Positions 6,551 through 21,433 are shown, numbered from the stretch's first letter. The stretch is 64,000 bases of DNA from Minisyncoccota bacterium (GCA_018062765.1 JAGORR010000001.1:10087-74086); one strand, 5' to 3'. Notes: generated from the letters alone by a model not told the origin. Numbers and translations: made by a program.

Positions 6551-7126
6551 ATGGCCGTACTCTCATACAACGAGATAGTCCCGAAAACGATTATCGAATA
6601 CAACAACGAGCCGTACGAGGTGCTCTCCTCGCACGTCTTCCGCATGCAGATGAGGAAGCCCGTGAACCAGACGAAGCTCCGCCAAGTTATCTCTGGAAAA
6701 GTCATCGAAATCTCCTTCCACCAGAGCGAGACCGTAAAGGAAGCGGATATCGAGTGGATGGATGCGAATTATCTCTATACCAATCGCGGCGAGTCTTGGT
6801 TTGCGGAAGCCGGTAACGCAAAGAACCGATTCTCATTCCCTGAGAACGTCGTGCACGACCAGGTACAGTGGCTCGTGCCAAACACGGAGATAGAGGTCAT
6901 GGTGTACAAGGAGAAGCCCGTATCTCTCAAAATTCCTATCAAGGTAGACCTCAAAGTGAAGGAGGCAGCGCCCGCCGTAAAGGGCGACACGGTCTCGGGC
7001 GGCAGCAAGCAGGTGGTGCTCGAGTCAGGTGCCTCCGTAAACACTCCCCTCTTCATCAACGAGGGTGATGTGCTCAAGATAAACACTGACACCGGTGAGT
7101 ATGTCGAACGAGTCAGTAAATCTTAG
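6551..7126 (+). CDS. efp: Elongation factor P
   Basis: EF-P fold similarity across the full length. The ORF-track start at 6512 was trimmed to the ATG at 6551 (MAVLSYNEI...). Confidence 0.9.
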   Translation: MAVLSYNEIVPKTIIEYNNEPYEVLSSHVFRMQMRKPVNQTKLRQVISGKVIEISFHQSETVKEADIEWMDANYLYTNRGESWFAEAGNAKNRFSFPENVVHDQVQWLVPNTEIEVMVYKEKPVSLKIPIKVDLKVKEAAPAVKGDTVSGGSKQVVLESGASVNTPLFINEGDVLKINTDTGEYVERVSKS

Positions 7127-7145
7127 CTAAAAAGGATTAGTAAAG

Positions 7146-7176
7146 AAAAAGCCTCCGCATCGCGGAGGCTTTTTCT
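7146..7176. terminator. Bidirectional rho-independent terminator between convergent efp and rpsR
   Basis: AAAAAGCCTCCGCATCGCGGAGGCTTTTT: a perfect stem with A and T tracts on both sides. Confidence 0.6.
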
Positions 7177-7306
7177 TAGGTCGAGGTCAAAAGGTTCAGA
7201 TACAAGGCGCGGGCAGGGTGGGTGCCGTAGACGTATAGAGCATACGGCGAAGGCGCCCATCCGGGCGCCCGTAACGCAGTAGCTGGAGCTTTTGGACCGA
7301 CCTTGT

Positions 7307-7513
7307 CTACGCTTGGAGGTATGGCAAAAGCGCCATATAACGCGCCCGCTTTATTGCAAGCGCTATTTCGCGCTGGCGCTCGCTTGATACGCCGGTGCGC
7401 TTCTTCGCGAGCATGCGCGCATGCGGATCCGTGAACTGCTTCAGGTACGCGACATCCTTGTAGTCGACGTACTTCTTGTGCTCTATTTCCTCTCGTTCCG
7501 CCTGGTAAGCCAT
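7307..7513 (-). CDS. rpsR: 30S ribosomal protein S18
   Basis: S18 signature, ...ALAIKRARYMALLPY. Confidence 0.9.
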   Translation of the reverse strand: MAYQAEREEIEHKKYVDYKDVAYLKQFTDPHARMLAKKRTGVSSERQREIALAIKRARYMALLPYLQA

Positions 7514-7532
7514 AAAATAGTTGGTAGCTGTC

Positions 7533-7610
7533 AGCTTATAGCTTTTAGCTTTGAATGCAAATTTGAATAATTTCCTAACCTAGTAGCTTATAGCTCGTAG
7601 CTAACAGCTA
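7533..7610. repeat. AT-rich intergenic with two copies of 11-bp palindrome AGCTTATAGCT (7533-7543, 7585-7595) plus TAGCTAACAGCTA palindrome
   Basis: Read directly from the sequence between ssb and rpsR. Confidence 0.5.
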
Positions 7611-8072
7611 GAATGGTATGTCCTCGGGGTTAATCTCCTCATCCGGGTACTGGATAGCGTCGCCGCCTCCTGGTGCCTCCGGCATATCCTGCTCGTTGCC
7701 TCCCTTCTGGGCTGCGCCCGCGCCACGGCTGCCGCCTGCAGGACCTCCGTCCGCGCCGAACTGGAAGTTGTCGACGACGATCTCGGTCTTGTAATTCTTC
7801 TTACCATCCGCTTCCCAGCTCCGGGTCTGCATGCGGCCTTCAACGTAGACCGGGCGACCCTTCTTGAGGTACTGCCCCATGACCTCGGCAACTCGTCCGA
7901 AGGCGACGATATTGTGGAACTCGGTCTGCTCCTTCTGGCTTCCTGATGCCTTATCCTTGTAGGTGCGATTAGTCGCGAGCCCGAAGGTTACTACCTGCTG
8001 GCCGCTTGGTAGCGCGCGGCTCTCCGGGTCGCGGGTGAGGTTTCCGTAGAGAAGTACCTTGTTGAGATACAT
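7608..8072 (-). CDS. ssb: Single-stranded DNA-binding protein
   Basis: OB-fold SSB, Gly-rich linker, and a C-terminal acidic DIPF tail. Confidence 0.95.
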   Translation of the reverse strand: MYLNKVLLYGNLTRDPESRALPSGQQVVTFGLATNRTYKDKASGSQKEQTEFHNIVAFGRVAEVMGQYLKKGRPVYVEGRMQTRSWEADGKKNYKTEIVVDNFQFGADGGPAGGSRGAGAAQKGGNEQDMPEAPGGGDAIQYPDEEINPEDIPF

Positions 8073-8078
8073 GACGAG

Positions 8079-8558
8079 TTAGGCGACGGCGTTCTCGAGG
8101 GCAGCGTCGAGCTCAGTGTCGGATACCGGCTCATCAGCTGCCTCGGCAGGCATCTGGCGAAGCTCCTTCATTTCAGCTGAGTGCTTCGCCTCCTCCTTGG
8201 TGGTGCGGATGTCCAGGTATCGGACGACCTTCGAATTCCCCTTCACGGAGGCGATTGCCGCCTCGTGCCCCTCCCCATCAGCCTCGTAGGCGACCCATCC
8301 GAAGTAGGCAGAGTCGAAATCACGGCGTCCGGCGGTCTCAGAGCGGGAGATGGTGTAGGCGAGCTGGACCTTCTCAAGGGTTCCCTCAGCAACGATTGCG
8401 GAGCCTGCTGCTGCCTTTATCGCCTCATACACCTTCCCTGCCTCGGTCTCCGAGAGCTCGGGGTCGAGGTGGAAGGCAAGCTCGTATACACGTACTTCAG
8501 AACCGCCGTCCTCGGCGGAAATTGCTTCCTCGGCTACTTCTTCTTTCTTTCGTGCCAT
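8079..8558 (-). CDS. rpsF: 30S ribosomal protein S6 (with acidic C-terminal extension)
   Basis: Classic rpsF-ssb-rpsR gene order. S6-like N-terminal half (VRVYELAFHLDPELSE...). Confidence 0.8.
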   Translation of the reverse strand: MARKKEEVAEEAISAEDGGSEVRVYELAFHLDPELSETEAGKVYEAIKAAAGSAIVAEGTLEKVQLAYTISRSETAGRRDFDSAYFGWVAYEADGEGHEAAIASVKGNSKVVRYLDIRTTKEEAKHSAEMKELRQMPAEAADEPVSDTELDAALENAVA

Positions 8559-8605
8559 AGTGGAGAAAGCGTACCACGCACCCTTTCCCTGGGCAAACGG
8601 CCCTG

Positions 8606-9412
8606 TTACGAGGCCGTTTCGACCTTGAATGCCCGGATGGCGTTCCTAAGGACCGCCTCCCGAACCGTCTCCCTATCCTCCCCGCGAATCTCTGCAAGCG
8701 CGGTCACTATCTCCGGTATAGAAAGGGGGTCGTTCCGCTGTCCTCGCCTCGACTTTGGCGCCACATAGGGCGCATCGGTCTCGGTAAGGAGCCGGTCGAG
8801 CGGCGCGAAGCGCACTGCCTCGTCATAATCCCTGGCGAAGGTAAGGACCGCCGTATAGGAGACGGTGAAATCGAGTGCGAAAACGCGGCGAGCGATATCG
8901 GTGTCTCCGACGAAGAAATGCACGTTCCCTCGGAGCTTATCGCCGTGCTCTTGCTTCCCGCTTTCTAGAATCGAAAGCAGATCATGGTACGCGTCCATAC
9001 TCCCTTTCGACGGTCGGCCGTGGATCATCAAGGGCTTCCCGTATTCCACCGAAAGCCCGATGTGCCTCTCAAATAGTTCTCGTTGAGAACGCTTCACCTC
9101 CGCGTTCGCGTCCTCCGGTCTGAAATAATCGATACCGCACTCTCCTACCGCGACGACCTTAGGGCTCGCAAGCAAGGCACGCGTCGCCGCTTCATCGAAT
9201 TGCTCCAAAGGCGTGTCATTCGGGTGATGCCCTGCAGTCGCCCACAAGGTTTCCGAGTCGTGCACTAAATCAAGTGCAGATTCTGACGACTCCTTATCAA
9301 CCCCGACCACGAGCCCGCCGATTCCCTCTTCGCGCATGCGTGTGATGATCGCGTCACGGTCATCCGCGTACTTGTCGAATTGGATATGGCAGTGAGCGTC
9401 GAAGTAGCGCAT
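8606..9412 (-). CDS. tatD: TatD-family metal-dependent deoxyribonuclease/hydrolase
   Basis: N-terminal FDAHCHIQFDKY motif of the TatD amidohydrolase fold. Confidence 0.9.
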   Translation of the reverse strand: MRYFDAHCHIQFDKYADDRDAIITRMREEGIGGLVVGVDKESSESALDLVHDSETLWATAGHHPNDTPLEQFDEAATRALLASPKVVAVGECGIDYFRPEDANAEVKRSQRELFERHIGLSVEYGKPLMIHGRPSKGSMDAYHDLLSILESGKQEHGDKLRGNVHFFVGDTDIARRVFALDFTVSYTAVLTFARDYDEAVRFAPLDRLLTETDAPYVAPKSRRGQRNDPLSIPEIVTALAEIRGEDRETVREAVLRNAIRAFKVETAS

Positions 9413-9414
9413 GG

Positions 9415-10854
9415 CTACGCAGTAAGGCGCGGGAAAAGATTCTCAGGCTTCGTGTTCGCTGCCACCGCTGCAAGTATCGATACCGAGGTCTTCGGCATGA
9501 ATGGAACAAGGTGCGCCGCAACCTTGGCGAGATGCCGCACGAGCTTCTCTATCGCGTCGCGCGCGGCGTCTGCAGTTGCGGCATCCTTTATCTTCTTGTA
9601 CGGCTCCTCACTCGTCATGAACTCGTCGCCCTTCGCCACGTGCTCGAAAATAAGGTCCATCGCTTCGTGAAAAGAAAACCGATTCATCTTCTCCGTAAAT
9701 TCCGCCTCTACGAACGTGTCTTCTTGTGAGAGCGTTACCGGCGCAGAGAGATGATCTTCCGCAAGCTTCATCACGCGCGCAACAAGATTCCCGAGCCCGT
9801 TTACTAGGTTCGCAGTGTACCACTCATCCATGCGCTCCCAGGTGATGTCCGAGTCCTCAAAGGGATGCACATGGCGCAAGAGCAGGTAGCGCGTCGCCTC
9901 CGTCCCGTACTTCGAGACAAGCTCATACGGATTGATGACGTTCCCCAGAGACTTCGACATGCGTTGGCCGCCGGAGTTAATGAACCCATGATAGAAGACT
10001 TGGTCGGTGTTCTTTACTCCTGCTGACATAAGCATCGCCTGCCACATAAGTGACTGAAAACGCACCTGGTCCTTTCCCGCAACCTGCATTACCCGCCCTT
10101 CCTCCCAGAACTTCGCAAACTTCCCTTCCGCGTCCGCGGGCCACCCCAAGGTAGAGATGTAGTTAGTAAGAGCATCGAACCAGACATACATGACCTGACT
10201 TTCGTCGCCAGGTACGGGTACGCCCCACGTAAGCCGCGCCTTCTCGCGGGAGATTGAGAAGTCCTCGAGTCCGCCTTTCACAAACGCGATAGCCTCCTCG
10301 CGCCGCCAATCGGGTGCTATAGAATCCTCGCGCGAGAGGTACTCGAGCAATGCATCCTGATACTTTGAGAAACGGAAGAAGTAATTCTCTTCAGTTATCT
10401 CTTGGAGCGTGAGCGATGGGTGTATCGGGCACTTTCCTTCTACGATGTCCTTCTCGGTCTTGTAGGCTTCGCACCCGACACAGTAGAGGCCCGTGTAACT
10501 CTTCTTATAGATATCTCCCGCTGCTTCGCAGCGCTTCCACATCTCCTTAGCCGCCTCGTAGTGGCGGGGCTCCGTGGTACGTATGAATGCGTGCTCAGAA
10601 AGCCCTAGCGCGTCTCCCAGCTTACGGAACTCCTCGGAATAGTGATCGACATACGTATGGACGTCCTTCCCTGCCTTCTCTGCAGCCTCGAGGATTTTCT
10701 GCCCATGCTCGTCGGTCCCAGTATTGAAAAAGACCTCATCGCCTGCAAGCCGCCAATTCCTTACAAGCGCGTCTGCCTGCACGAACTCGAGCGCGTTGCC
10801 GATATGCGGGTCCGCGTTCACGTACGGAAGCGTCGTCGTGAGATACCGCCGCAT
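9415..10854 (-). CDS. metG: Methionyl-tRNA synthetase
   Basis: PYVNADPHIGNALEF (HIGH-region variant HIGN), KMSKSLGNVI motif, GTDEHGQKI. Confidence 0.95.
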   Translation of the reverse strand: MRRYLTTTLPYVNADPHIGNALEFVQADALVRNWRLAGDEVFFNTGTDEHGQKILEAAEKAGKDVHTYVDHYSEEFRKLGDALGLSEHAFIRTTEPRHYEAAKEMWKRCEAAGDIYKKSYTGLYCVGCEAYKTEKDIVEGKCPIHPSLTLQEITEENYFFRFSKYQDALLEYLSREDSIAPDWRREEAIAFVKGGLEDFSISREKARLTWGVPVPGDESQVMYVWFDALTNYISTLGWPADAEGKFAKFWEEGRVMQVAGKDQVRFQSLMWQAMLMSAGVKNTDQVFYHGFINSGGQRMSKSLGNVINPYELVSKYGTEATRYLLLRHVHPFEDSDITWERMDEWYTANLVNGLGNLVARVMKLAEDHLSAPVTLSQEDTFVEAEFTEKMNRFSFHEAMDLIFEHVAKGDEFMTSEEPYKKIKDAATADAARDAIEKLVRHLAKVAAHLVPFMPKTSVSILAAVAANTKPENLFPRLTA

Positions 10855-10859
10855 GGAGT

Positions 10860-11972
10860 CTATATGCTATTGGAAAGCTCCGCCGCCTTTCGCTTTCCCT
10901 TCTCTATATCAGCGAAGAATTCCTGAAGTGACGCCGCGATAGGAACCGACAGAAGTATGCCAAGGAAACCAGCCAACTCCGCACCGGCGACTAAGGCGAG
11001 GATGACAAGAAGCGGCGGCAAGCCCACCACCTTCTTCACCACAAGCGGATAAATGAGGTTGGATTCGAACTGATTCAGGATGATGTAGAGCCCGGCGACG
11101 ATAACGGCGAGCGCGAGTCCCTCCGCGGAGAACGCGATGGCAACCGCAAGAAGACCCGCGACAAGCCCTCCGAATATCGGTATGAGCTCCGCCATGCCAG
11201 TGATGATGCCAAGCAGAAGCGCGTGCGGAACGCCCATGATAAGGAGTCCGAGGGTCGTCAGTACGCCCATGATGACCGAGAGCAGAAGTTGCCCCTGCAT
11301 CCATAAACCTATCTTTCGCTTCGCGCGCTGCCAAAGGTCGACGACATAATTCTCATGCTTCACTGGCGTGATGAGACGAAGGAAGTCGTCTACGCCGGTC
11401 TCCTGGAGCGCAAAGTAGAACGAAAGGATGACGACAAGGAAGAGCGCAAATATGCTTCCGAAGAAGGCGGCAATAAGCGCGATAACCCCTTCCGTCCCCG
11501 CGGAGAATACGCCACGCAAGGAAACCAGTGTTGAGAACAGAGACTGTGCCTCGCCACCCTCGGTAGTCGGCGCAAGAACCGAGAGCGACTCAGGGATAGA
11601 AAGGTCATCGAGGTACCCCGGTACTGAGGCGATGAAGGCCTGCGCTTCATCGATGATGGGCGGGAAGAAGAAATAGACGACACTGAATACTGACCCGAAC
11701 ACAAGTACGTACATAAGAAGCACTGAAAAGACGCGCGCGATACCGCGACGGATGAAGAATATGACGCCCGGCTCTATCGCTGAAGCGATGACAATCGCCG
11801 TAAGGATGAGGAGGAGGAGGTCCTTAAGGAGCCATGCGACATACGCCGCAACGCCAATAAAAAGCGCGCGGATTATCGTTCCCGGAGTGATGGAGACGTT
11901 CACCATGCGGTCCATGAGGGGCATACTAGCACATCCCTCCCCGGGGCAGGACTTACGCGAGCGCTTCGGCAA
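10860..11972 (-). CDS. AI-2E family transporter (UPF0118/PerM-like permease)
   Basis: Eight predicted TM helices and AI-2E-like architecture. The N-terminus overlaps the glyQS end; the true start may be the internal MPLMDRM. Confidence 0.75.
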   Translation of the reverse strand: MPKRSRKSCPGEGCASMPLMDRMVNVSITPGTIIRALFIGVAAYVAWLLKDLLLLILTAIVIASAIEPGVIFFIRRGIARVFSVLLMYVLVFGSVFSVVYFFFPPIIDEAQAFIASVPGYLDDLSIPESLSVLAPTTEGGEAQSLFSTLVSLRGVFSAGTEGVIALIAAFFGSIFALFLVVILSFYFALQETGVDDFLRLITPVKHENYVVDLWQRAKRKIGLWMQGQLLLSVIMGVLTTLGLLIMGVPHALLLGIITGMAELIPIFGGLVAGLLAVAIAFSAEGLALAVIVAGLYIILNQFESNLIYPLVVKKVVGLPPLLVILALVAGAELAGFLGILLSVPIAASLQEFFADIEKGKRKAAELSNSI

Positions 11973-13290
11973 TACGCTTCTTCACGTCTTCTATTGATAG
12001 ACGTTCTTGTTCCCCACTATCGCGATGGCGAAGCGTCACGGTGCCGAGTAGCTCCGGCTTCTCTCCTAAAGTATCGAAATCGATGGTGATGCAGAACGGT
12101 GTACCAATCTCATCCTGCCGGCGGTATCGCTTACCGATGTTTCCGTTGTCATCGAACGCAGCGACCACGCCAGCTTTCTTTAGTTCCTTGAATACCTCAC
12201 GCGCCTTTTCAACGAGCTCCGGCTTGTTCTTAAGGAGCGGAAATACCGCCGCCGTATATGGCGCCACCTTAGGAGATAGCTTCAGATACACACGCTTCTC
12301 ACCTCCCTGCTCGTCCTCGGCATACGCGTCCGAAAGCACGGCGAGCACGAGGCGGTCGAGCCCGAAGGTCGGCTCGATGCAGTGCGGGACAATTCTCTCC
12401 TTCGTTTCCTCGTCGAGGTAGGTCAGGTTCTCACCGGAAGCAGCAGCATGCGCCGAGAGGTCGAAGTCGGTGCGATACGCAAGACCGAGTAATTCCTTCT
12501 GACCGAACGGGAAATCGAACTCCGTATCAATGCTCCTCTTGCTGTAGTGCGCGCGGTCTTCCGCCGGCACGTCTATCTTATGAATCTTCGACTCATTGAG
12601 TCCGAGTTCCTTAAGGAACGCGACCTGGAGTAGGAACCACTCGTCAAAAATACGGTTGAGCTCCGCTTCGTTGCGCGGATCTACGAAATACTCTATTTCC
12701 ATCTGCTCGAGCTCCCGCAAGCGGAAGATGAAATCGCGCGGGGCTATCTCGTTACGGAATGCCTTTCCGACCTGCGCAAGTCCGAATGGGAGCTTTGGAT
12801 GAAAAGAGTCGATGACATTCTTGAAGTTCACGAACATGCCGCCTGCGGTCTCGGGGCGCAGGTACACCATCGCGGAATCATCATCAGCCGCGCCGGCCTT
12901 CGTCTTGAACATCATGTTGAACGTGCGCGCTTCCCCCAGCGTCCCCTTCTTCTTGCATGAGGGACACGTATCCGGGCTCTCAAGATGGTCGGCACGGAAA
13001 CGGCCCTTGCAATTGGTGCACTCCACCATCGGATCGTTAAACCCGGTGACGTGACCAGACGCCTCCCACGCCTTGGGGTTCATCAGAATTGCTGCGTCTA
13101 TCCCGTACATATCCTCGCGCTCGGTCACGAAAGTCTTCCACCAGAGCCCACGGATGTTGTTCTTTAGGGCGACGCCCAAGGGGCCGTAATCGTAGGTACC
13201 CGCGAGTCCTCCGTAAATCTCTGAGCCCGGATATACGAAGCCCCTGCGCTTTGCAAGCGAGACAATCTCCTCCATAGAAACCTTATGCAT
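11953..13290 (-). CDS. glyQS: Glycyl-tRNA synthetase (alpha2 dimeric type)
   Basis: N-terminal EEIVSLAKRRGFVYPGSEIYGGLAGTYDYGPLG, typical of GlyRS2. Confidence 0.95.
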   Translation of the reverse strand: MHKVSMEEIVSLAKRRGFVYPGSEIYGGLAGTYDYGPLGVALKNNIRGLWWKTFVTEREDMYGIDAAILMNPKAWEASGHVTGFNDPMVECTNCKGRFRADHLESPDTCPSCKKKGTLGEARTFNMMFKTKAGAADDDSAMVYLRPETAGGMFVNFKNVIDSFHPKLPFGLAQVGKAFRNEIAPRDFIFRLRELEQMEIEYFVDPRNEAELNRIFDEWFLLQVAFLKELGLNESKIHKIDVPAEDRAHYSKRSIDTEFDFPFGQKELLGLAYRTDFDLSAHAAASGENLTYLDEETKERIVPHCIEPTFGLDRLVLAVLSDAYAEDEQGGEKRVYLKLSPKVAPYTAAVFPLLKNKPELVEKAREVFKELKKAGVVAAFDDNGNIGKRYRRQDEIGTPFCITIDFDTLGEKPELLGTVTLRHRDSGEQERLSIEDVKKRIAEALA

Positions 13291-13303
13291 ACAGAAGTTC
13301 TGC

Positions 13304-15196
13304 CTACTGTACCTGACCGAAGGAGGATTGATAAGCCGGGTCGCGGTGGGTCCGTATGTCTATCGCAGGCGCAGTTAGCCCGACCGGTGCTTGGGTAAAC
13401 CGGTCCGTACCAGTGACTTTCTGTGCCGAGATGAGGGTCGGCGAGTCACCTTGCTGCGAGATGCTTGGCGTCAATGATACCTGGAACGCCGCGTCCTTCT
13501 TCCCGTGCGCCGGCAGGCTTCCGATGTTCCAGGTAATGGTGCGCGACGCCTCGTTATACACGACGCTCCCATCTGCGGGCGTCGCAAGTCCCGTATAGGT
13601 CACGTAGCTCGGTATCGTCATCGTCGCGGATGCACCTGCAACTTCGTTCACCGTATTCTCGGCTGTGAGCTGAATCGTGTACGTCGTAGGTACGCCCACC
13701 GTCGGTGGCCACGGCCCCTGGTTCTCGAACGGCCCCTGCGTACGCACCGCGCGCGAGTCGAACGTGAATCCGGTCGCAACCTTCACCGTGCGCGTAAGTA
13801 TGGAAGAGAGGCTTTCAGAAACCCCGCTCTCAGAAAGGCGTCTTCCTGCGACCGATACGACGAGGGTTATCTCCTGCTTCGAAAGATTCGCAAGCGCATC
13901 CCCATCTAATGACGCGAAGGAGAACTGGCCGACGCCGGTGTCGCCAGGCGCGAGCTCCCGCAAACCCCGGCTCGTGTCACGGTCGAAGAGGATCGTCATA
14001 TCGCCCGACTGGAAGAAACCGTCTCCGCTTGATACCTCATAGGGGTCAAGTGCGGCGCCCGAGAGCTTCACGGAGATCTTCGCATCAAGGATCGAGGTCG
14101 GGAGCGTATTCTTCCAGTTCACCTGCGCACCGACTCGCTTCCCTGCCTCGATGACCGGTTTCGCGCTCGTATCGCCATCTACCGTAAGCGCCACTTCTAT
14201 AAAAGGACGGGTGATTCCTATCTCGGAAACCGCAGACGCGTACGCGAGATCGAGCTTCCCAGACTCTGCATCCTTCGAGGTGCCCGCACTCCAATTGAAC
14301 ACCCGGGTGTCATCGTTCACTCCCGCAAGCGTTCCCGTCACGGTAAATCGCTTCTCCTCCCCTGCCTCGAGAGTGCCTAAGGAAAAGAACGTGCCGCTGT
14401 TGCGGCTTTGGATAGACGTATTTGTCACGGTGAACCCGTAGGGATATTGGGCGGACAGGGCGACGTTCTCTATGGGCTCGGTCGAGTTCGCCCGCACCGC
14501 CAAGGAGAACGTCACCGATTGTCCGGAGGACGTTTCCTTTATCGAGGTCGCATTCACCGAGAGCGGAGACGTGGTGATGGTGATATCAAACGGTTCGCTC
14601 TTCTGGAACGTCGCGTTCGAGTTCTCGGTCTCGTACTCGACACGCATCGGTATCGAGAGCTTCTGGTTCTCGCTTCCGAACAGGGTCGCGCGCACCGTCT
14701 GCGTGAACCCGCCTCCCGCCTCTATCGTGCCGACGTCGAAGTTCTGGTGCGTGAGCTCCTTATCGGGGTCGTCCGCGTCACGTGTCCCCGGCGGATAGTC
14801 GATGCCGAGGTTCGAGACGTCTATCGCAACCGGATTCCTGTTCTGCACCGTGATAAGGAGCGTGACGGTCTCGCCGGAGGCCGAGGTCGTGGGGCCGTCA
14901 ACCAGGATGTCGACATGCTCGTCCGAGATGGAGCCGCTTCCCCAGATGAGATACGCCGCAGTCAATGAGCCTGCGACCAGGAAGAACAGGAGGGCTCCGA
15001 TGAAGAATTTTACGGCCAGTGGCATACGGGGCTTCGTCCGGTCAATAAGCGTGGGCGCTGGCGCTTGGTCCCAGCCGCGCGCAACAGGCGCGGAAGCTGG
15101 GATAAGCGTATCAGGCGTGACTGAGGGCGCAGCTTTGGACGCATAGAGCCCTTCGCGCATTCGCTCTAAGGCGCCCTTGTCTTCTTCAGGAGGCAT
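13304..15196 (-). CDS. Large hypothetical surface protein, N-terminal TM anchor plus repeated beta-rich (Ig/DUF11-like) segments
   Basis: A TM helix at residues ~60-85, followed by ~540 residues rich in T/S/V/N with repetitive beta-like periodicity. Confidence 0.45.
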   Translation of the reverse strand: MPPEEDKGALERMREGLYASKAAPSVTPDTLIPASAPVARGWDQAPAPTLIDRTKPRMPLAVKFFIGALLFFLVAGSLTAAYLIWGSGSISDEHVDILVDGPTTSASGETVTLLITVQNRNPVAIDVSNLGIDYPPGTRDADDPDKELTHQNFDVGTIEAGGGFTQTVRATLFGSENQKLSIPMRVEYETENSNATFQKSEPFDITITTSPLSVNATSIKETSSGQSVTFSLAVRANSTEPIENVALSAQYPYGFTVTNTSIQSRNSGTFFSLGTLEAGEEKRFTVTGTLAGVNDDTRVFNWSAGTSKDAESGKLDLAYASAVSEIGITRPFIEVALTVDGDTSAKPVIEAGKRVGAQVNWKNTLPTSILDAKISVKLSGAALDPYEVSSGDGFFQSGDMTILFDRDTSRGLRELAPGDTGVGQFSFASLDGDALANLSKQEITLVVSVAGRRLSESGVSESLSSILTRTVKVATGFTFDSRAVRTQGPFENQGPWPPTVGVPTTYTIQLTAENTVNEVAGASATMTIPSYVTYTGLATPADGSVVYNEASRTITWNIGSLPAHGKKDAAFQVSLTPSISQQGDSPTLISAQKVTGTDRFTQAPVGLTAPAIDIRTHRDPAYQSSFGQVQ

Positions 15197-15205
15197 ACGC
15201 CTCGA

Positions 15206-15775
15206 TTATAGCCCGGAAGCGGCGATGCCCATATTGGCGCGAGTGACGAATGCGGTGCGTTTCCTCTCGACATCCCGGAGCGTATCTATCGAGAACGGCG
15301 CTTCCCTATCCCCCGGTAGATCCCCGGTCTCGAGCCCCAGCGCTTCGAGCGTGCGAAGTACCATGAGGCATTCAAGCGCCTCATGCGCAGCTTCCGGCGT
15401 CTCCTTAAGTGCCGTCATAAAAGCGGTTAGGAGTGTAAAGTGGCGCGCATCCTTCTCGTCAGCAGGCACAAGCCGCAATAGAAGCGCAGCGATGCGTGCT
15501 GCTCGCGTGCGCGAAGCGGGAGTAAGGAGCGAAAACCAGTTCGTGCGCGGCACGGCGCCCCGCACTCGCCACCCTTCGCGCCCTGCAACCAGGGTAAGCT
15601 CGCTTTCCGAAAGGGTCTGGAGCGCACCCGCCAGTTTCGCGCCCATCTTTTTCACGCCCTGCGCGCGTGCGTGGATAAGTCCGAGCTCTGACGTCAGTAT
15701 GGAAAGAAGCGCACTCTCCTCCCCCAAGGGGCGCGTCCGGAGCACTACGCCGTCGCTTGCGTAGCTCTGCCGCAT
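15206..15775 (-). CDS. recO: DNA repair protein RecO (short, 189 aa)
   Basis: N-terminal OB-fold pattern GVVLRTRPLGEESALLSILTSELGLIHARAQG. Lacks the usual C-terminal portion. Confidence 0.65.
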   Translation of the reverse strand: MRQSYASDGVVLRTRPLGEESALLSILTSELGLIHARAQGVKKMGAKLAGALQTLSESELTLVAGREGWRVRGAVPRTNWFSLLTPASRTRAARIAALLLRLVPADEKDARHFTLLTAFMTALKETPEAAHEALECLMVLRTLEALGLETGDLPGDREAPFSIDTLRDVERKRTAFVTRANMGIAASGL

Positions 15776-15777
15776 AG

Positions 15778-18700
15778 TTAGGAAGTCTTACGGAGCGTGA
15801 ACGAAACGGGGCCGGTAGAAAGCTCTGCCGTGTAAGGCCCCGCGCCGCGCTCTATTTCGACCGTGTCTTTGGGCGAGAGCCCGAGCGTCTTGCGCGCCTC
15901 CGCAACCGCCCTCTGGAATTGGCGCTCGTCACCTTCTCGCACCAACTCTGGAGTAAGTGACGTATCGAGAGAGACTTCCGTTGCGCGATATAGAACCTTC
16001 TTTACGTTCACCTCGTCCGCAAGTATCGCGGACAGCTCGGGCGATAGCGAGCCCGGTATTGAAAGCGAAGCGAGCGGCTGGCGCACCGCAACATTCGCCT
16101 TCTGACGGAGCATGAGTGCTTCAGACGCAAGTCGTCGCACCTCCTGCATCTCGCTAATAAGACTCTCGTTCGCGCGCGCGCCGAATATGCGGGCCATCAA
16201 AGGCGCCTTGACCGTCGGCCAGTCAGAGAGGTGCACGCTCTCCGCATCGTCCGCACGCTTCACTGCCTGGAATATCTCCTCTGCCACAAACGGAACGATT
16301 GGAGCCGCAGCACGGGAGAAGCGATGCAGAGTTTCGCGCAAAGTCGAAAGCGCTGCCGCCGCGTCCTTCCCTTTCATACGGTCGCGTGAACGCCTGAGGT
16401 ACCAGGTCGAAAGATCGTCTACAAATTCGCGTATGGGGCGCGTCGCGCGCGGCACGTCATAGCGATCGAACGCCTCCGTCATCTCAGCGATCGTGGCGTC
16501 GAGTCGCGCGGTAATCCAGCGATCAAGCGGGTCTGCACTCTTCTGGCTCGTATCCGTAGCCTCATCCGCAAACAATGAGTAGAACGCAAGAACGTTGCGC
16601 AACATGTTGATGACACGGCTGTGCGCCTCCTTCACATCCTCGTCGCGGAAGAAGAGGTCCTCCGCTTGCATGACGACCGAGGCCATCAGGTAGTAACGGA
16701 ATGCGTCCGCGCCATAGCGGTCAAACAGCAAATACGGGTCGGTGTAGTTCTGCTTCGATTTAGAGAGCTTCGCACCATCGCCCGCGTTCACGTTCCCGGT
16801 CGTGATGACATTTCGGAACGACTGGCGGTCGAAGAGTTCAACGGACATCGCATGCATGTAGTAGAACCACGCGCGCGTCTGGCCGATATACTCCGATATG
16901 AAATCTCCCGGGCTCCGTTTCTCAAACTCGGCACGGTTCTCAAACGGATAGTGGTACTCCGCAAATGGCATGGAGCCAGATTCTACCCAGCAGTCAACGA
17001 CTTCCGGTATGCGCGTAAGCGCCTCTCCCTTCTCATTTACGAGCGAGACGCGGTCGATATAAGGCAAGTGGAAGTCGAGTTCGTACCGCGTGTTGTGCGG
17101 AAGCGGGACGAACGCGAGCGGGCAGACCGTTCCCGGCTCAGGATTCATCTCATCGAGAATTTTCTTGGATTTCTCCGGTCCTGCACCCTCGACGATACCC
17201 GCGAAGACCTCGCAGCCAATACCGTGAGACACAATCAGTATGTTCTCGTTCTCGCTTGAGGCCTCGAGCTCATACAGGAATTCACCGAATCGCTCCTTCG
17301 CATCCTGATAGCTCTCGCCGCCTGGCATGCGGTCATCAAAAGACGTGATGTGCTCATCTTCATATGCGAGGAAGTCCGTGAATGCGCGCCCGTGGTATTC
17401 CCCAAACCCGAACTCGCGGAGCCGATCGTCGTACGTGATGCTGTCCTCTGGAATTCCGAGCTTGCGGGCGATAAGGGCTGCGGTCTCTCTGGTGCGTGCA
17501 AATGGAGACGCGTAAATACGCGTTATGCGTTCCTTGCCAAGACGCGCCGCGGCGTCGTTCACCTGCTCCTTCCCTTTCTCGGTAAGCGGCCACTTCTTTT
17601 CGTCGGTTGAGTCGATGACGTTTTTGGCGTTGTGCTCTGCCTCCCCGTGCCTCATCACGAAGTACCGATTCCCGCTCTTTTTGGTGAGTGATTTAAGCTC
17701 CGCAAGAGAGCCGACAACGGTGACGTCGCCCGCCGCGTTCTTCCAAATCGGGAGCGGGCTCGCCCAGAAGCGGTTCCGGGAGATGGTCCAGTCCGGAGCG
17801 GTCTCTATGATGTGGCGGAACCTGCCCTGCTTCAGATGTTCTGGCACCCAGGTGATGTTCTCATTCTCCTCGAGCATGCGCTCTTTGACCGCCTGTATGT
17901 TTATGAACCAGCTTGAAACGGCGTTAAATATGAGCGCCGTGCCGCACCGATAGCAGTGCGGGTACGAGTGCGTGTACGGACCTGACGAAAAATGCAGGCC
18001 CTTTTCCTTCAGGTACTCGATGACCTTCGGATTCGCCTTGCGGATGTATTCTCCGTGGAGCATCTCAGGCGCGTCCGTGTTGTAGGTCGCGTTCGCATTA
18101 AGAAGCTGCACCATCGGAAGCTTCTCCTTCTGTCCTAGCGCGAAGTCGTCCTCGCCGTACATAACGGCGGTATGGACGACGCCGGTACCATCCTCAGTCG
18201 TGACGAAGTCAGCGGCGACTACCTGATACTTTTTTTCCTTTGCGTTCGCAATCTTCGGTACCTCGAACAATGGTTCGTACTCGACACCGACGATTTTCTT
18301 CGCGGGTACATCCTGCGCAGCAGCCGAGAATCCGTTTACCTCTGCCAACGCCGTCGCAAGCACGAAATGCTCGCCGTTCTTTTCGTAAAGTCCGTACGCG
18401 ACTTCAGGGCCCACCGCCAAGGCGACGTTCCCCGGGAGTGTCCACGGCGTCGTCGTCCACGCGAGGATGAATGTGTTTTCCGGAAGACCGTGCTTACCGG
18501 GATTCTTTACGCGGAATTTCACCGTGACCGCCTCATCCGTCACGTCCTTATAAGTGTTGTCCATCGCGATCTCCGCCTTCGCAAGCGGCGTCTCGCAGTG
18601 CGGGCAGTACATGAGGACCTTCCGTCCCTCGTAGAGCCGGCCCTTCTTGTGTATCTCCTTGAGACCCCACCACACGCTCTCGGTGTAGGACGCATCCATC

Positions 18701-19143
18701 GTCTTGTACGCATTATCGAAATCAACCCAGCGCCCGACACGCTCTACGTAGCGCTTCCAGTCATGGACGTAATCGAGGACCATCGAGCGCGCCGCCTCGT
18801 TGAAGGCTTCTATGCCGGTCGCGAGTATTTCCTTTTTATTCTTGAGTCCGAGCTTCTTCTCGACCAGTGACTCTATGGGGAGTCCGTGGGTGTCCCAGCC
18901 CCATCGGCGCCGTACGAAAAAACCGCGCATCGTCTTGTAGCGCGGGATGACATCCTTCGACACGCTTGAAAGCAAGGAACCCGAGTGAGGGAGCCCGGTC
19001 GCAAACGGCGGCCCGTCGTAAAAGACGAACTCTCCGTTAGGCGCCTTCTTTGAGAGAGATTTTTCGAATATCCCCTTCTCCTTCCAGAAGGCCAATGTCT
19101 TTTCCTCCCGGAGGGCTGCCTCCGATTTCTCTGCCTCTGCCAT
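15778..19143 (-). CDS. ileS: Isoleucyl-tRNA synthetase (type 2/eukaryote-like) with inserted histidine-phosphatase (PGAM-family) domain
   Basis: WGWDTHGLPIE, TTTPWTLPGN, WTISRNRFWASPLPIW, KLSKSKQNY (KMSKS variant). The HIGH position reads PHSGS. Residues ~518-680 carry RHGEAEHN...SPFARTRETA...EFGFGEYHG...VSHG, the histidine phosphatase motifs. Start trimmed from 19218 to the ATG at 19143 (MAEAEKSE...). Confidence 0.9.
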   Translation of the reverse strand: MAEAEKSEAALREEKTLAFWKEKGIFEKSLSKKAPNGEFVFYDGPPFATGLPHSGSLLSSVSKDVIPRYKTMRGFFVRRRWGWDTHGLPIESLVEKKLGLKNKKEILATGIEAFNEAARSMVLDYVHDWKRYVERVGRWVDFDNAYKTMDASYTESVWWGLKEIHKKGRLYEGRKVLMYCPHCETPLAKAEIAMDNTYKDVTDEAVTVKFRVKNPGKHGLPENTFILAWTTTPWTLPGNVALAVGPEVAYGLYEKNGEHFVLATALAEVNGFSAAAQDVPAKKIVGVEYEPLFEVPKIANAKEKKYQVVAADFVTTEDGTGVVHTAVMYGEDDFALGQKEKLPMVQLLNANATYNTDAPEMLHGEYIRKANPKVIEYLKEKGLHFSSGPYTHSYPHCYRCGTALIFNAVSSWFINIQAVKERMLEENENITWVPEHLKQGRFRHIIETAPDWTISRNRFWASPLPIWKNAAGDVTVVGSLAELKSLTKKSGNRYFVMRHGEAEHNAKNVIDSTDEKKWPLTEKGKEQVNDAAARLGKERITRIYASPFARTRETAALIARKLGIPEDSITYDDRLREFGFGEYHGRAFTDFLAYEDEHITSFDDRMPGGESYQDAKERFGEFLYELEASSENENILIVSHGIGCEVFAGIVEGAGPEKSKKILDEMNPEPGTVCPLAFVPLPHNTRYELDFHLPYIDRVSLVNEKGEALTRIPEVVDCWVESGSMPFAEYHYPFENRAEFEKRSPGDFISEYIGQTRAWFYYMHAMSVELFDRQSFRNVITTGNVNAGDGAKLSKSKQNYTDPYLLFDRYGADAFRYYLMASVVMQAEDLFFRDEDVKEAHSRVINMLRNVLAFYSLFADEATDTSQKSADPLDRWITARLDATIAEMTEAFDRYDVPRATRPIREFVDDLSTWYLRRSRDRMKGKDAAAALSTLRETLHRFSRAAAPIVPFVAEEIFQAVKRADDAESVHLSDWPTVKAPLMARIFGARANESLISEMQEVRRLASEALMLRQKANVAVRQPLASLSIPGSLSPELSAILADEVNVKKVLYRATEVSLDTSLTPELVREGDERQFQRAVAEARKTLGLSPKDTVEIERGAGPYTAELSTGPVSFTLRKTS

Positions 19144-19170
19144 GATTGAAATATCGTAGCGTTTTCGCGG

Positions 19171-19206
19171 GTAAAAGGAAAACAGGCCGCGCGTAAGCGC
19201 GGCCTG
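19171..19206 (-). terminator. Rho-independent terminator after small-protein operon / upstream of ileS
   Basis: On the minus strand CAGGCCGCGCTTACGCGCGGCCTG is followed by TTTTCCTTTT. Confidence 0.55.
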
Positions 19207-19227
19207 CGGGTTCGGCACAAGGCCGTG

Positions 19228-19458
19228 TCAGGGTGCGGTGGCGGTGGCCCGGCACTTGTTCGGCTGCATGAGCGACCGGGCGGCGTTGATCCGGAAGGAC
19301 GCGATCTGCAAGCGCGGATTATCTCCCGGATGGATGGTGGATCCGTACTTGGACCCCCCAGCATCAACCGCCTCAAGCCGGCACGGCAACCCATGTCGGG
19401 TAGCCATCGCTTCGAGCGCCGGGACGTCCGGCAGCCTCCCCAGATCCTTGTTCCCCAT
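19228..19458 (-). CDS. Hypothetical small protein (76 aa), second gene of a two-gene operon
   Basis: AAGGAG SD 7 nt upstream of the ATG. Followed by a terminator. No recognisable domain. Confidence 0.45.
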   Translation of the reverse strand: MGNKDLGRLPDVPALEAMATRHGLPCRLEAVDAGGSKYGSTIHPGDNPRLQIASFRINAARSLMQPNKCRATATAP

Positions 19459-19473
19459 TGTCGTTCTCCTTGG

Positions 19474-19668
19474 TTACAGCTGCGGTGATTCGATGAGATA
19501 GGAGGGGACGGACCTGCCGTTTGTCCTCACGTGAGCGTGGTGGTGCCGGGACGCGCGACGCGAACCGACGCCAGCCTTCCTGGCCTGCTTCTCGAAATCC
19601 TCGAGTTTGAACAGCTTCCTCTTTCGAGGCTTGGTTACGCGTTCGCGCTTACCCGGTGCCTTAAGCAT
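19474..19668 (-). CDS. Hypothetical small, very basic, His-rich protein (64 aa)
   Basis: AGGGAG SD 6 nt upstream of the ATG. The N-terminus is KR-rich (MLKAPGKRERVTKPRKRKLFK) and there is an RHHHAH motif. Confidence 0.45.
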   Translation of the reverse strand: MLKAPGKRERVTKPRKRKLFKLEDFEKQARKAGVGSRRASRHHHAHVRTNGRSVPSYLIESPQL

Positions 19669-19732
19669 CCGTTACTCCCTGAACTGTTGAAAGGACAAAA
19701 ATACGACGGCGCCAACTGACGCAGTGTTTTGC

Positions 19733-19761
19733 TTTATACGCCTCTCGATTCGATATGGCAA
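19733..19761 (-). promoter_or_regulatory. Candidate sigma70-like promoter for the small-protein operon
   Basis: Minus strand reads TTGCCA, a 17-nt spacer, then TATAAA, ~50 nt upstream of the first small ORF. Confidence 0.35.
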
Positions 19762-19786
19762 TACGTTTGCCGAGGATAGCAGCGAC

Positions 19787-21433
19787 TTACATCCTTTCCG
19801 GCGCTGGGATGCCGAGCATCGAAAATCCTGCTCGCATAGTGTTCGCAAACGCGCGCGCAACTTGCTGCTTGTATGCCTCCTCCGGGCTCCCCAGTATCTG
19901 CTCGGTTGCATAGAATGCATTCCAAGCGGAGGCGAGCTGCGTCAGATACTGCGCGATATGGTGGGGCGCTGAGTCCTGTCGAGCTCGCGCACAAACGCCC
20001 GGGAACCGGAGAAGGAGCCGCTCGATGGTATAGGGTTCCGCCGGTGTCTCTCCTCCCCCGCTCTTGTTGTCGTAGGTCAGTACCTTGAGTGCCCGCACGA
20101 GAGCGTACTGGAGGTATGGGCCGGAGTCGCCTTCAAGGGAAAGTGATTTCTCCGGATCAAAGATGATGTCGCCACCCGGTGCCTGCCGGAGAATCATGTA
20201 TTTGAGTGCGCCTACCGCCACCTGCTCCGCCACAAGAGAGTCCTCGTTCTTCTCCTTCGCCTTCTCTATGACCTCGTCAATTATTTCCTTTGCGGTTATG
20301 ACCGTTCCCTCGCGCGATGACATCTTCCCGGACGTCAGGCGCAAAAATCCATGCGGGATGTGCCGCGTTTTCTTTGCTACCAGGGGCGCGATGTCCTCGA
20401 GTGCGGCGAGGAACACAGCAAAGTGCCCGGACTGCTCTGCGGCCGTGAGGATAATGCTCTCATCGCTCGGCACCCGCTCCTCCTTAAGGAAGGCGAGGCC
20501 GATATCTTTTGCTTCGTAGGTTGGCGTGTCGCGGCTCGTGATGAATACGAGGGTGTGGAGCCCCTTCTTCTCTCCTTTATATATAATCGCGCCCTCGCTC
20601 TCCTCGAACACGCCCTTCGCGAGTCCCTCCTTCACGATACGCATCCCAGGCTCCGCTGTTTCGCTCTCAAAAAAGAAGTAATCGAACTTCGTGCCCATCA
20701 AAGCGTATATCTCGTAGAAGGCCTCCAGGGAAACTTCTCGTGCGCGGCGCCACAAATCCATGAGACCCGGGTCCTCGCCTTTGTATATTTCCTGATTCAG
20801 CGCATCTATCTCTGCCTTCGCTTCCTCACTCTTTTCATACGCCTGCGAACCATGCGCATACGCCTTCCCTATCTCCGCACTGTTTGCGGGCTCGGTAACG
20901 CCATCCTTGCGGAGTGCCCACAATGCCTTTGCGATGTGCGGACCGACGTCCCCGCCGTAGCTGTCGCGAATAACCGTCGCGCTTCCTGATTCGATGACAC
21001 GCGCAACTGCCTCGCCAATAACGGTCGACATGAGGTGACCAACATGCATCTCCTTCATCGGGTTAGGGCAGGAATACTCGACGATGACGCGCTTTCCGAG
21101 TGATTCCTTCGTGCGGCCGAGTGACTCCCCTGCTTTTGCAGCGTGCTCAATTTCCGCACGCACGCTTGCGGGCGAAAGGGTGATGTTCACGAAACCAGGC
21201 CCGGCAGCCTCCACCTTCGTGACGAGGTCCCCGAGAATCTCCGCGACTTTGGTCGCGAGCTCTCCCGCGAGTTCCTGAGGATTCCGGCCAAGCTTCTTTG
21301 CGGCTGCCATCGCGGCGTTCGTCGCGTAGTCTCCGTGGGTTAAGTCACCCGGCCACTCAACCGCAAAGGACGTTCCCTCGACACCCATTTCAATGAGCGC
21401 CTCCTCGACAGCTTTTCGTATCCGCTCCTCCAT
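19787..21433 (-). CDS. argS: Arginyl-tRNA synthetase
   Basis: HVGH motif (NPMKEMHVGHLMSTV) and ArgRS N-terminal add-on domain similarity. Confidence 0.95.
   Translation of the reverse strand: MEERIRKAVEEALIEMGVEGTSFAVEWPGDLTHGDYATNAAMAAAKKLGRNPQELAGELATKVAEILGDLVTKVEAAGPGFVNITLSPASVRAEIEHAAKAGESLGRTKESLGKRVIVEYSCPNPMKEMHVGHLMSTVIGEAVARVIESGSATVIRDSYGGDVGPHIAKALWALRKDGVTEPANSAEIGKAYAHGSQAYEKSEEAKAEIDALNQEIYKGEDPGLMDLWRRAREVSLEAFYEIYALMGTKFDYFFFESETAEPGMRIVKEGLAKGVFEESEGAIIYKGEKKGLHTLVFITSRDTPTYEAKDIGLAFLKEERVPSDESIILTAAEQSGHFAVFLAALEDIAPLVAKKTRHIPHGFLRLTSGKMSSREGTVITAKEIIDEVIEKAKEKNEDSLVAEQVAVGALKYMILRQAPGGDIIFDPEKSLSLEGDSGPYLQYALVRALKVLTYDNKSGGGETPAEPYTIERLLLRFPGVCARARQDSAPHHIAQYLTQLASAWNAFYATEQILGSPEEAYKQQVARAFANTMRAGFSMLGIPAPERM

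Follow-up and report, generated by a model that had tools for sequence, protein, structure and literature searches.

A histidine phosphatase module nested in the isoleucyl-tRNA synthetase of Patescibacteria

Does a housekeeping tRNA synthetase carry a second enzyme within its own chain, and if so, what might that enzyme do there? The question is raised by a 64,000-nucleotide stretch of DNA from a Minisyncoccota bacterium (GCA_018062765.1, JAGORR010000001.1:10087-74086; hereafter the window, which denotes the whole stretch analysed). From the sequence alone, its ileS gene for isoleucyl-tRNA synthetase (IleRS) had been proposed to contain an embedded histidine phosphatase of the phosphoglycerate mutase family (the original prediction). 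We find that a branch-1 histidine phosphatase module of about 200 residues is nested in the CP3 subdomain of a type-2 IleRS, that the same arrangement recurs across Patescibacteria, and that related free-standing phosphatase genes lie directly upstream of ileS genes lacking the insert. The module is apparently catalytically competent as judged from its conserved residues, and it may act on a small phosphorylated compound in partnership with the synthetase.

A phosphatase module nested in CP3

Both the gene and its embedded domain were confirmed. An open reading frame extends over 15778..19218 on the minus strand, and the alignment consensus of relatives starts at the residue matching the ATG at 19143, giving a protein of 1121 residues. 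All residues are numbered here from that ATG; the earlier numbers for the insert (~518-680) were offset because they had been counted from an upstream GTG. The protein passed the NCBIfam ileS equivalog TIGR00392 (774.7 bits, cutoff 621.4) in two stretches flanking the insert, and the Pfam tRNA-synt_1 match was divided in two by His_Phos_1 (PF00300), the hit that had been predicted for this segment. The CP1 editing domain is present, with WTTTPWT at residue 229 and GTGVVH at 319, and matches editing-domain structures of Thermus thermophilus (1WK8 and others, E=1e-33). An anticodon-binding domain (Anticodon_1, PF08264, E=2.5e-28) occupies residues 874-1024. All motifs quoted in the original prediction could be located in the translation, among them WTISRNRFWASPLPIW (452-467) and DCWVESGSMPF (717-727) on either side of the insert.

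Residues 13-481 of the T. thermophilus IleRS align to residues 12-488 of the window protein, and 488-818 to 689-1015. Because the alignment falls into these two parts, the true insert is 200 residues long (489-688) and replaces a loop of approximately six residues (T. thermophilus ~482-487). The insert is therefore real, as proposed, and larger than the ~165 residues first assigned to it. Where a short canonical linker had been expected, the replaced six-residue loop in fact belongs to CP3. This subdomain comprises only ~60 residues, varies in fold among IleRSs and directly follows the CP2-3 linker WxxSRxRxWG; its boundaries in the Candida and yeast enzymes enclose the insertion site (PMC7191050, PMC7955072). 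In a structure-set alignment the insert was missing from the ordinary type-2 IleRSs of T. thermophilus, Priestia megaterium (IleRS2), yeast and Candida, and it is accordingly not a known subdomain of such enzymes.

The insert does not differ from its host gene in composition. Its GC content is 0.57, compared with 0.574 for the remainder of ileS, and its third-position GC content (GC3) is 0.70, compared with 0.74 and 0.70 in the two flanking parts. The reading frame runs through it uninterrupted. In all insert-bearing groups the junctions of the embedded form are identical (TKKSGN upstream, PLPHN..YELD downstream), which argues for a single insertion event. Hundreds of assemblies made independently contain this junction, which for practical purposes excludes misassembly, in keeping with the original view that the insert is no artefact.

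The complete catalytic set of a branch-1 histidine phosphatase is present, as had been predicted: RHGEAEHN at 498-505, ASPFARTRETAA at 545-556, EFGFGEYHGRAF at 577-588 and VSHGIG at 638-643 supply R498, H499, R550, E577 and H640. We assessed their conservation in 121 close relatives and in a broader sample of 81 sequences, with IleRS cores down to 41% identical to that of the window, and found each residue invariant or nearly so (Table 1). The insert as a whole is the least conserved and fastest-evolving segment of ileS, with a mean top-residue frequency of 0.55 compared with 0.90 in the N-terminal catalytic part. This pattern indicates strict purifying selection on the catalytic residues, and the module appears to be catalytically competent. 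Further signatures mark the subfamily: GNxY before strand 1, K616, Y624, E645 and the tail F.P...N..(Y/F)E.

AlphaFold2 predicted the expected PGAM-like domain with high confidence. In the full-length model the insert was the most confident part, with a predicted local distance difference test score (pLDDT) of 90-97 compared with a whole-protein mean of 81.7 and a predicted template modelling score (pTM) of 0.72. Modelled alone it formed a compact PGAM-like alpha/beta domain (pLDDT 95.2, pTM 0.91). A Foldseek search of the PDB returned CobC, PspA, TIGAR, PhoE, Rv2419c and the riboflavin-pathway histidine-family phosphatase HFP at TM scores of 0.70-0.78 and 20-25% identity. Probability was 1.00 for PhoE, PspA and CobC, with CobC the top structural neighbour; phosphoglycerate mutases ranked lower, with smaller target coverage. 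The family named in the original prediction is thus right as to fold, and the predicted structure resembles small-molecule phosphatases more closely than phosphoglycerate mutase. The modules are acidic, with a mean net charge of -6.9 and -11 for that of the window.

The module fell below the cutoff of every function-specific NCBIfam equivalog that was compared (dPGM, the cofactor-dependent phosphoglycerate mutase, and CobC, PspA, GpmB and SixA). It scored 86.2 against 162.9 for the CobC alpha-ribazole phosphatase model TIGR03162, and 41.3 against 74.5 for SixA (TIGR00249), where only the N-terminal 70 residues were matched. We rejected identity as a phosphoglycerate mutase: the dPGM models gave 91 of 225 bits required (NF038349), 71 of 261 (NF002901), 41 of 316 (NF002339) and 30 of 320 (NF002217). 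In addition, the module lacks the Asn of the dPGM 'HGN' motif, which follows the C-terminal catalytic His-Gly and binds substrate in dPGM. At what we take to be the equivalent position, 642, the family has I, V, D, C or E. A role as an anti-phage defence component was also rejected, as neither the module nor a free-standing homolog gave a PADLOC match.

Occurrence, free-standing genes and further insertion sites

All 120 best database homologs (62-98% identity, 1099-1185 residues; NCBI, JGI, ENA and Logan) contained PF00300, and those bearing a name came from Patescibacteria, Paceibacterota or Kaiserbacteria assemblies. Scanning one genome per species with the module signature GN[TRK]Y[FYL][VAT][ML]RHG gave ~550 matching loci; among the best 80 of these, all 80 were from Patescibacteria and all 80 were embedded in ileS. 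A metagenome scan added 37 further embedded cases, and an exhaustive profile search yielded 424 clusters at the 50% identity level (E<=1e-30). Public databases label the insert-bearing proteins either 'class I tRNA ligase family protein' or 'isoleucyl-tRNA synthetase'. At NCBI, for example, the insert-bearing P0004, P0014 and P0015 carry the former name and the insert-less P0310, P0318 and P0329 are called 'isoleucine--tRNA ligase'. Automatic naming thus seems to fail on account of the insert.

Related genomes proved to contain ileS both with and without the insert, and a search with the insert alone recovered the same phosphatase as a separate gene. Four such proteins of 211-214 residues (P0122, P0123, P0124 and P0127; group SA1) match the insert end to end at 40-45% identity, including the signatures outside the Pfam core. 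G491, N492, Y494, K616, Y624, E645, N684 and E688 are common to the free-standing proteins and the insert. The SA1 genes stop 7-11 nt ahead of an insert-less ileS in the context argS-pif1-x-hisphos-ileS-recO. In the P0122 locus the downstream gene overlaps the stop codon by 4 nt, and this locus is outside the count of readable loci given below. A metagenome scan seeded with the four SA1 proteins uncovered a second, more divergent group in AT-rich genomes (SA2; L127 and L129-L134; 192-203 residues) with intact catalytic residues. Every SA2 gene precedes an insert-less ileS on the same strand, at a distance of 14-24 nt in six loci and 1.2 kb in L127.

In total, an insert-less ileS follows on the same strand in 8/8 distinct free-standing loci with a readable downstream gene. 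These loci represent two or more lineages that are distant from each other, including one rich in GC and one rich in AT. Because the searches were seeded on the phosphatase, this adjacency is not an artefact of selection. Members of one subfamily thus occur nested within IleRS and 7-24 nt upstream of insert-less ileS, a Rosetta-stone fusion combined with a conserved operon. Such a combination classically marks a functional partnership, and the link to IleRS is no accident. Seven further candidates for free-standing or split genes (P0170, P0192, P0121, P0125, P0126, P0128 and P0132) were discarded as contig-end fragments or frameshifted embedded genes.

Eight loci of the insert-less IleRS clade were examined: five have an upstream histidine phosphatase, one a HAD hydrolase and two no phosphatase. 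The HAD hydrolase (L085, 6031-6672) is beta-phosphoglucomutase-like (147.7 bits, cutoff 153.35) and occupies the slot that holds the histidine phosphatase in close relatives, ~330 nt upstream of an insert-less ileS (7001-9961); it could be a non-homologous replacement or a coincidence. The ~1.2 kb between phosphatase and ileS in L127 (5571-6822) holds several small open reading frames that look toxin-antitoxin-like by eye.

Modules are not confined to one site or one copy. Two lie in tandem in CP3 of the IleRSs P0215, P0232, P0239 and P0249. Others stand between DxWxxSG and KMSKS (the second module of P0186 and the first of P0187 and P0235) or ~70 residues past KMSKS (P0187, P0235, P0258 and P0260). 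Valyl-tRNA synthetase (ValRS) is also affected: P0270 (L090, 703-5319), which passed the valS equivalog NF004349 with 849 bits against 704, has two modules at two sites, and P0157, with the ValRS-type signature PPNVTG.LHLGH, has four. Overall, the copy number in IleRS and ValRS ranges from one to four, and at least three insertion sites are used. The R, H, R, E and H are retained in almost every tandem or other-site copy, R498 and H499 in every tandem copy aligned at those positions, and the modules of P0270 and P0157 are intact in their catalytic residues. In a module tree the tandem and ValRS copies group apart from the single-copy embedded modules and SA1 (mean distances of 1.86-1.95 against 1.09), a sign that a different module subfamily was recruited independently. 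The P0270 gene is immediately preceded by one for a PemK/MazF-type toxin. Besides a GNAT domain at its C-terminus and a His_Phos_1 module within CP3, the partial IleRS P0253 (1066 residues) contains an in-frame IS200/RAYT-like tyrosine-transposase domain (NF047646, 81 bits, cutoff 80) between WTTTPWT and GTGxVH of the editing domain.

The direction of change between nested and separate forms is less clear. We built neighbour-joining trees of the IleRS core with 200 bootstraps, rooted on T. thermophilus and P. megaterium IleRS2 sequences rebuilt from alignments. The main insert-less clade fell inside the insert-bearing lineages (100% each for the groupings E+F and D+E+F, 0% for monophyly of the insert-bearing enzymes). 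SA1 modules nest within the embedded modules (65% for the split uniting the two, 1% for embedded modules only), and SA2 joined weakly (21%). The core tree and the nesting of SA1 together suggest fission. We have withdrawn as a firm claim that the insert-less clade was simply derived in this way: the insert-less IleRSs partnered by SA2 are scattered, with three in the main insert-less clade, one sister to the clade of the window and two on a deep long branch, and all have the ancestral zinc knuckle. Given the positions of SA1 and SA2, a free-standing gene as donor of the insert was not demonstrable either. Fission that took place repeatedly in ancestors with the knuckle, an exchange of ileS alleles and artefacts of the distance trees are all possible.

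The zinc knuckle in question (CxxC...CxC) is part of CP3. It is lost in the window protein and in most insert-bearing IleRSs, and kept in T. thermophilus and in every insert-less relative, including the enzymes beside SA1; the IleRS of L026 has knuckle and insert together.

Another departure concerns the class-I HIGH signature. The window protein reads HSGS, which retains the first His and the Gly and is neither HXGH nor G/AXHH, the two forms on record for IleRS2, the second being the mupirocin hyper-resistance motif (PMC10485003). The only change of the fourth position described there is a laboratory-selected His-to-Gln. Approximately 110 of the 121 closest relatives have HxG(S/T), with the fourth His substituted, and this may be a third form of the signature that occurs in nature. 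In the wider insert-bearing set (loci L003-L082, for example L003, L017 and L011), about half have G(I/V/L)HH or A(I/L)HH instead, and the remainder include HYGH; the IleRS paired with the free-standing phosphatase of L127 has GAHH. The HIGH signature of the active site is unusually plastic in the Patescibacteria radiation.

In the window the genes follow one another as a MetRS-like gene, an AI-2E transporter, a class-II synthetase, a DUF11 protein, recO, ileS and argS, and the same block encloses insert-less ileS in related genomes. By position the window gene is thus orthologous to ordinary ileS and probably no extra paralog. Neither a second ileS nor another histidine phosphatase reading frame was found within the 64-kb window. 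Within 12 kb (9418-21433, minus strand) the block contains four synthetase genes, encoding a short MetRS-like class-I protein of 483 residues, a class-II enzyme (tRNA-synt_2b and HGTP_anticodon), IleRS and the argS product, and it is conserved in related genomes. Its argS-ileS slot is variable in relatives (L085, 4116-6672; L086, 5842-6936), where it may hold pif1, DUF1653, a Fic gene, a HAD hydrolase or a free-standing phosphatase. No relics of a phosphatase, pif1, Fic or HAD gene were detected in the 640-bp spacer of the window, whose only reading frame encodes 64 strongly basic residues (19474-19668, minus strand). When an RNA leader or riboswitch was sought around ileS, the only hit was a sub-threshold match to Rfam Termite-leu (19134-19211, minus strand; 24.2 bits against a gathering cutoff of 51, E=0.077), which overlaps the start of ileS and is probably due to chance.

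Table 1. Features of the ileS locus, counted from the first letter of the window.
Feature	Position	Strand	Remarks
ileS, type-2 isoleucyl-tRNA synthetase with nested phosphatase module	15778..19143	-	1121 aa + stop; translation verified
HSGS (aa 53-56), replacing the HIGH signature of class I	18976..18987	-	motif reading of the translation
CP2-3 linker (WTISRNRFWA) and N-terminal half of CP3, aa 452-488, ending ELKSLTK	17680..17790	-	T. thermophilus alignment to residue 481
Whole nested histidine phosphatase module, aa 489-688, including last strand and tail beyond the Pfam model	17080..17679	-	no counterpart in solved type-2 IleRSs
Pfam His_Phos_1 (PF00300) core, aa 495-659	17167..17661	-	E=5e-34, 118.1 bits, cutoff 21.7
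RHG motif: R498, nucleophile H499 (predicted), G500	17644..17652	-	R and H invariant in 121/121 and 81/81
R550, second phosphate-pocket Arg (SPxxR motif)	17494..17496	-	invariant in 121/121 and 81/81
E577, predicted general acid/base	17413..17415	-	117 E and 4 D of 121; 81/81 E
H640-G641, C-terminal catalytic His (SHG motif)	17221..17226	-	H invariant in 121/121 and 81/81
C-terminal half of CP3, aa 689-716, LDFHLPYIDRV..., back into the Rossmann fold before DCWVESG	16996..17079	-	T. thermophilus alignment from residue 488
KLSKS, the KMSKS signature, aa 792-796	16756..16770	-	motif present
recO-like gene directly downstream of ileS, synteny marker	15206..15775	-	Pfam RecO_N; same place in relatives
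argS upstream of ileS, synteny marker	19787..21433	-	Pfam tRNA-synt_1d, Arg_tRNA_synt_N, DALR_1
argS-ileS spacer, slot of the free-standing phosphatase gene in some relatives	19144-19786		640 bp

Possible roles of the module

Histidine phosphatases act through a nucleophilic His that forms a phospho-histidine intermediate. By this chemistry, the ~200-residue module, placed at the tip of a surface subdomain of the presumed housekeeping synthetase, would use His499 to attack a phosphomonoester and pass through such an intermediate. Arg498, Arg550 and His640 would hold the phosphate, and Glu577 would serve as general acid/base. The substrate would be a diffusible phosphorylated metabolite or nucleotide rather than RNA or protein. 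Such a small substrate is suggested by the fold class and the acidic surface, and also by the fact that the phosphatase exists as an autonomous protein and is tolerated in one to four copies at various sites. A functional partnership with Ile/Val-tRNA synthesis is indicated by the fusion together with the tight operon, which is conserved between distant lineages, and by recruitment into IleRS and ValRS that occurred repeatedly and independently. Our preferred reading, in which we place about even confidence, is that the protein is a bifunctional enzyme combining a housekeeping IleRS with a nested phosphatase that acts on a small phosphorylated compound in partnership with the synthetase. The coupling might be mechanistic, or might consist in co-expression or complex formation.

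Several considerations weigh against this bifunctional partnership. Synthetase activity of the window protein can only be presumed, because its HIGH motif is the non-canonical HSGS. CP3 may be just a permissive insertion site, because it is variable and exposed. The predicted fold class suggests a small-molecule substrate and does not prove one, and the superfamily includes SixA-, PGAM5- and Sts-type members that act on proteins. Many related genomes (P0321 and P0378 loci) have an insert-less ileS with no phosphatase nearby, which shows that IleRS as such can function without the partnership. A stronger proposal holds that nested domain, tandem arrays and upstream gene are three forms of one hitherto unrecognised synthetase-phosphatase system of Patescibacteria that is dedicated to the class-Ia editing synthetases IleRS and ValRS, mechanistically coupled to aminoacylation and several times independently recruited. 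There the module might remove a blocking phosphorylation from the 3' end of the tRNA, from the synthetase or from an adenylate-like inhibitor. We regard this stronger proposal as tentative and somewhat doubtful.

If CP3 is merely permissive, a metabolic phosphatase without functional relation to IleRS could have entered it as a pure hitch-hiker and been kept because excision would harm an essential gene. The structural variability and exposure of CP3 favour this explanation, as do the other in-frame passengers tolerated in P0253 (GNAT and transposase domains), the many relatives without a phosphatase near ileS and the unrelated HAD sugar-phosphatase found in the same upstream slot in one lineage. 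It is nevertheless unlikely, as it leaves unexplained why 8/8 free-standing genes, from two or more distant lineages, immediately precede ileS and why a different subfamily independently entered IleRS and ValRS at several sites, and as the catalytic residues appear to be under strict purifying selection. Another candidate role is repair of the tRNA end: the tethered phosphatase would strip a 3'-phosphate, left for example by a ribonuclease, or a pyrophosphate, added for example by toxSAS-type toxins, from tRNA(Ile) and so restore a chargeable CCA-OH at the synthetase. Toxins that pyrophosphorylate the CCA end and thereby block aminoacylation exist (10.1101/2021.04.30.441581, PMC11559606), and toxin genes (PemK, Fic and small toxin-antitoxin-like genes) adjoin some module loci. 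Moreover, the modules occur in both IleRS and ValRS, which share a tRNA binding mode, and the insert comes right after the CP2-3 linker, which lines the pocket for the tRNA 3' end, A76 and reveromycin (PMC7191050, PMC7955072). This mechanism is quite unlikely, however, given that the modules are strongly acidic, that their fold neighbours are small-molecule phosphatases, that neither the members of a tandem array of up to four copies nor the three or more different insertion sites can all be directed towards the CCA end, that the free-standing form would have to locate tRNA unaided, and that CP3 of human IARS1 is described as a protein-docking surface and not as a tRNA contact. Nor is any branch-1 histidine phosphatase known to us to use RNA ends as substrates.

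Alternatively, the target could be a protein. The module would then keep the synthetase or a partner dephosphorylated, for instance against HipA-like or other Ser/Thr/His kinases, as a form of built-in immunity or regulation. No kinase gene was linked to the module in any inspected locus, PADLOC gave no defence-system match, the nearest folds are metabolite phosphatases and the SixA model was matched at 41 bits against a cutoff of 74.5, all of which makes this explanation very unlikely. It would be in line with the presence of SixA (to which that weak match was made), PGAM5 and Sts-1 in the superfamily and with those insertion sites that flank the KMSKS loop. HipA-family kinases, for their part, inactivate aminoacyl-tRNA synthetases such as GltX and TrpS (PMC6581861, PMC8262856, PMC7029023). 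Still less probable is a missing glycolytic enzyme, that is, a divergent dPGM carried by an abundant housekeeping protein to fill the phosphoglycerate mutase gap of some Parcubacteria. Phosphoglycerate mutase is reported to be missing in several shallow Parcubacteria clades, possibly through forms that are too divergent (Jaffe et al. 2020, PMC7304191), and the top NCBIfam match of the module is an archaeal-type short dPGM model (91 bits). Yet all dPGM equivalogs remain far under cutoff, the HGN Asn is missing, phosphatases head the structural ranking with dPGMs lower, and such a role offers no reason for linkage to ileS and valS or for tandem arrays. Finally, the source is metagenome-type and some public relatives are frameshifted fragments (L084, P0125), which would be compatible with an assembly chimera or with a decayed or purely structural pseudo-enzyme. 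That explanation is effectively refuted by the identical junction in hundreds of independent assemblies from many projects, by the open frame with GC and GC3 matching the host gene, by a catalytic pentad invariant or nearly so in ~200 sequences with core identities down to 41%, and by the module being the most confidently predicted part of the model.

Relation to known systems and significance

Outside the insert the window protein is homologous over its full length to bacterial IleRS2 (T. thermophilus 1ILE/1JZQ, E=5e-194; P. megaterium 8C8V, E=2e-186), with which it shares CP1 editing motifs, KMSKS, the anticodon-binding domain and the type-2 C-terminus. Unlike these enzymes it has a 200-residue enzyme domain in CP3, has lost the zinc knuckle and carries the HSGS signature. 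The module likewise shares the RHG, second Arg, Glu and C-terminal His, the size of ~200 residues and the fold with PhoE (1H2E/1EBB), CobC (6NRU, 6E4B) and the phosphoserine phosphatase PspA (4IJ5/4IJ6), but is only 20-25% identical to them, has signatures of its own and is nested in, or encoded beside, a tRNA synthetase.

There is precedent for an IleRS with an additional enzymatic domain in NF040702, which has an N-acetyltransferase domain, and P0253 combines GNAT with His_Phos_1. In contrast, the window protein scores 326.7 bits against the NF040702 cutoff of 1999, has no acetyltransferase Pfam match and carries a phosphatase as its passenger. Fusion of His_Phos_1 to a nucleic-acid enzyme is known from the bifunctional RNase H/acid phosphatase (NF005567, PRK07238), which we take to be the Rv2228c type. 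The module scores 84 bits with that model, under its cutoff of 326, and there the fusion is end to end and with a different partner enzyme, not nested. Both parts of the window protein belong to well-known families; the nested or partnered arrangement is undescribed in the literature we searched, including recent papers on IleRS structure and evolution and on nested IleRS domains, where no account was found of a tRNA synthetase that contains a histidine phosphatase or has one as its partner.

Bacterial synthetases are viewed as lean, and nested catalytic domains beyond the editing domain are outside the textbook picture. Here an intact phosphatase lies within the essential IleRS of a large uncultured radiation, with ~550 loci matching the module signature. 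CP3 emerges as a place in IleRS where nature tolerates the insertion of whole domains, and the generic NCBI names of insert-bearing enzymes expose an annotation problem. The 200-residue module, or the free-standing proteins of 190-215 residues, offer a concrete and easily expressed target for finding the substrate. For the organisms themselves, the operon form and the repeated insertions into IleRS and ValRS point to a requirement for phosphatase chemistry near Ile/Val-tRNA synthesis in these reduced-genome epibionts.

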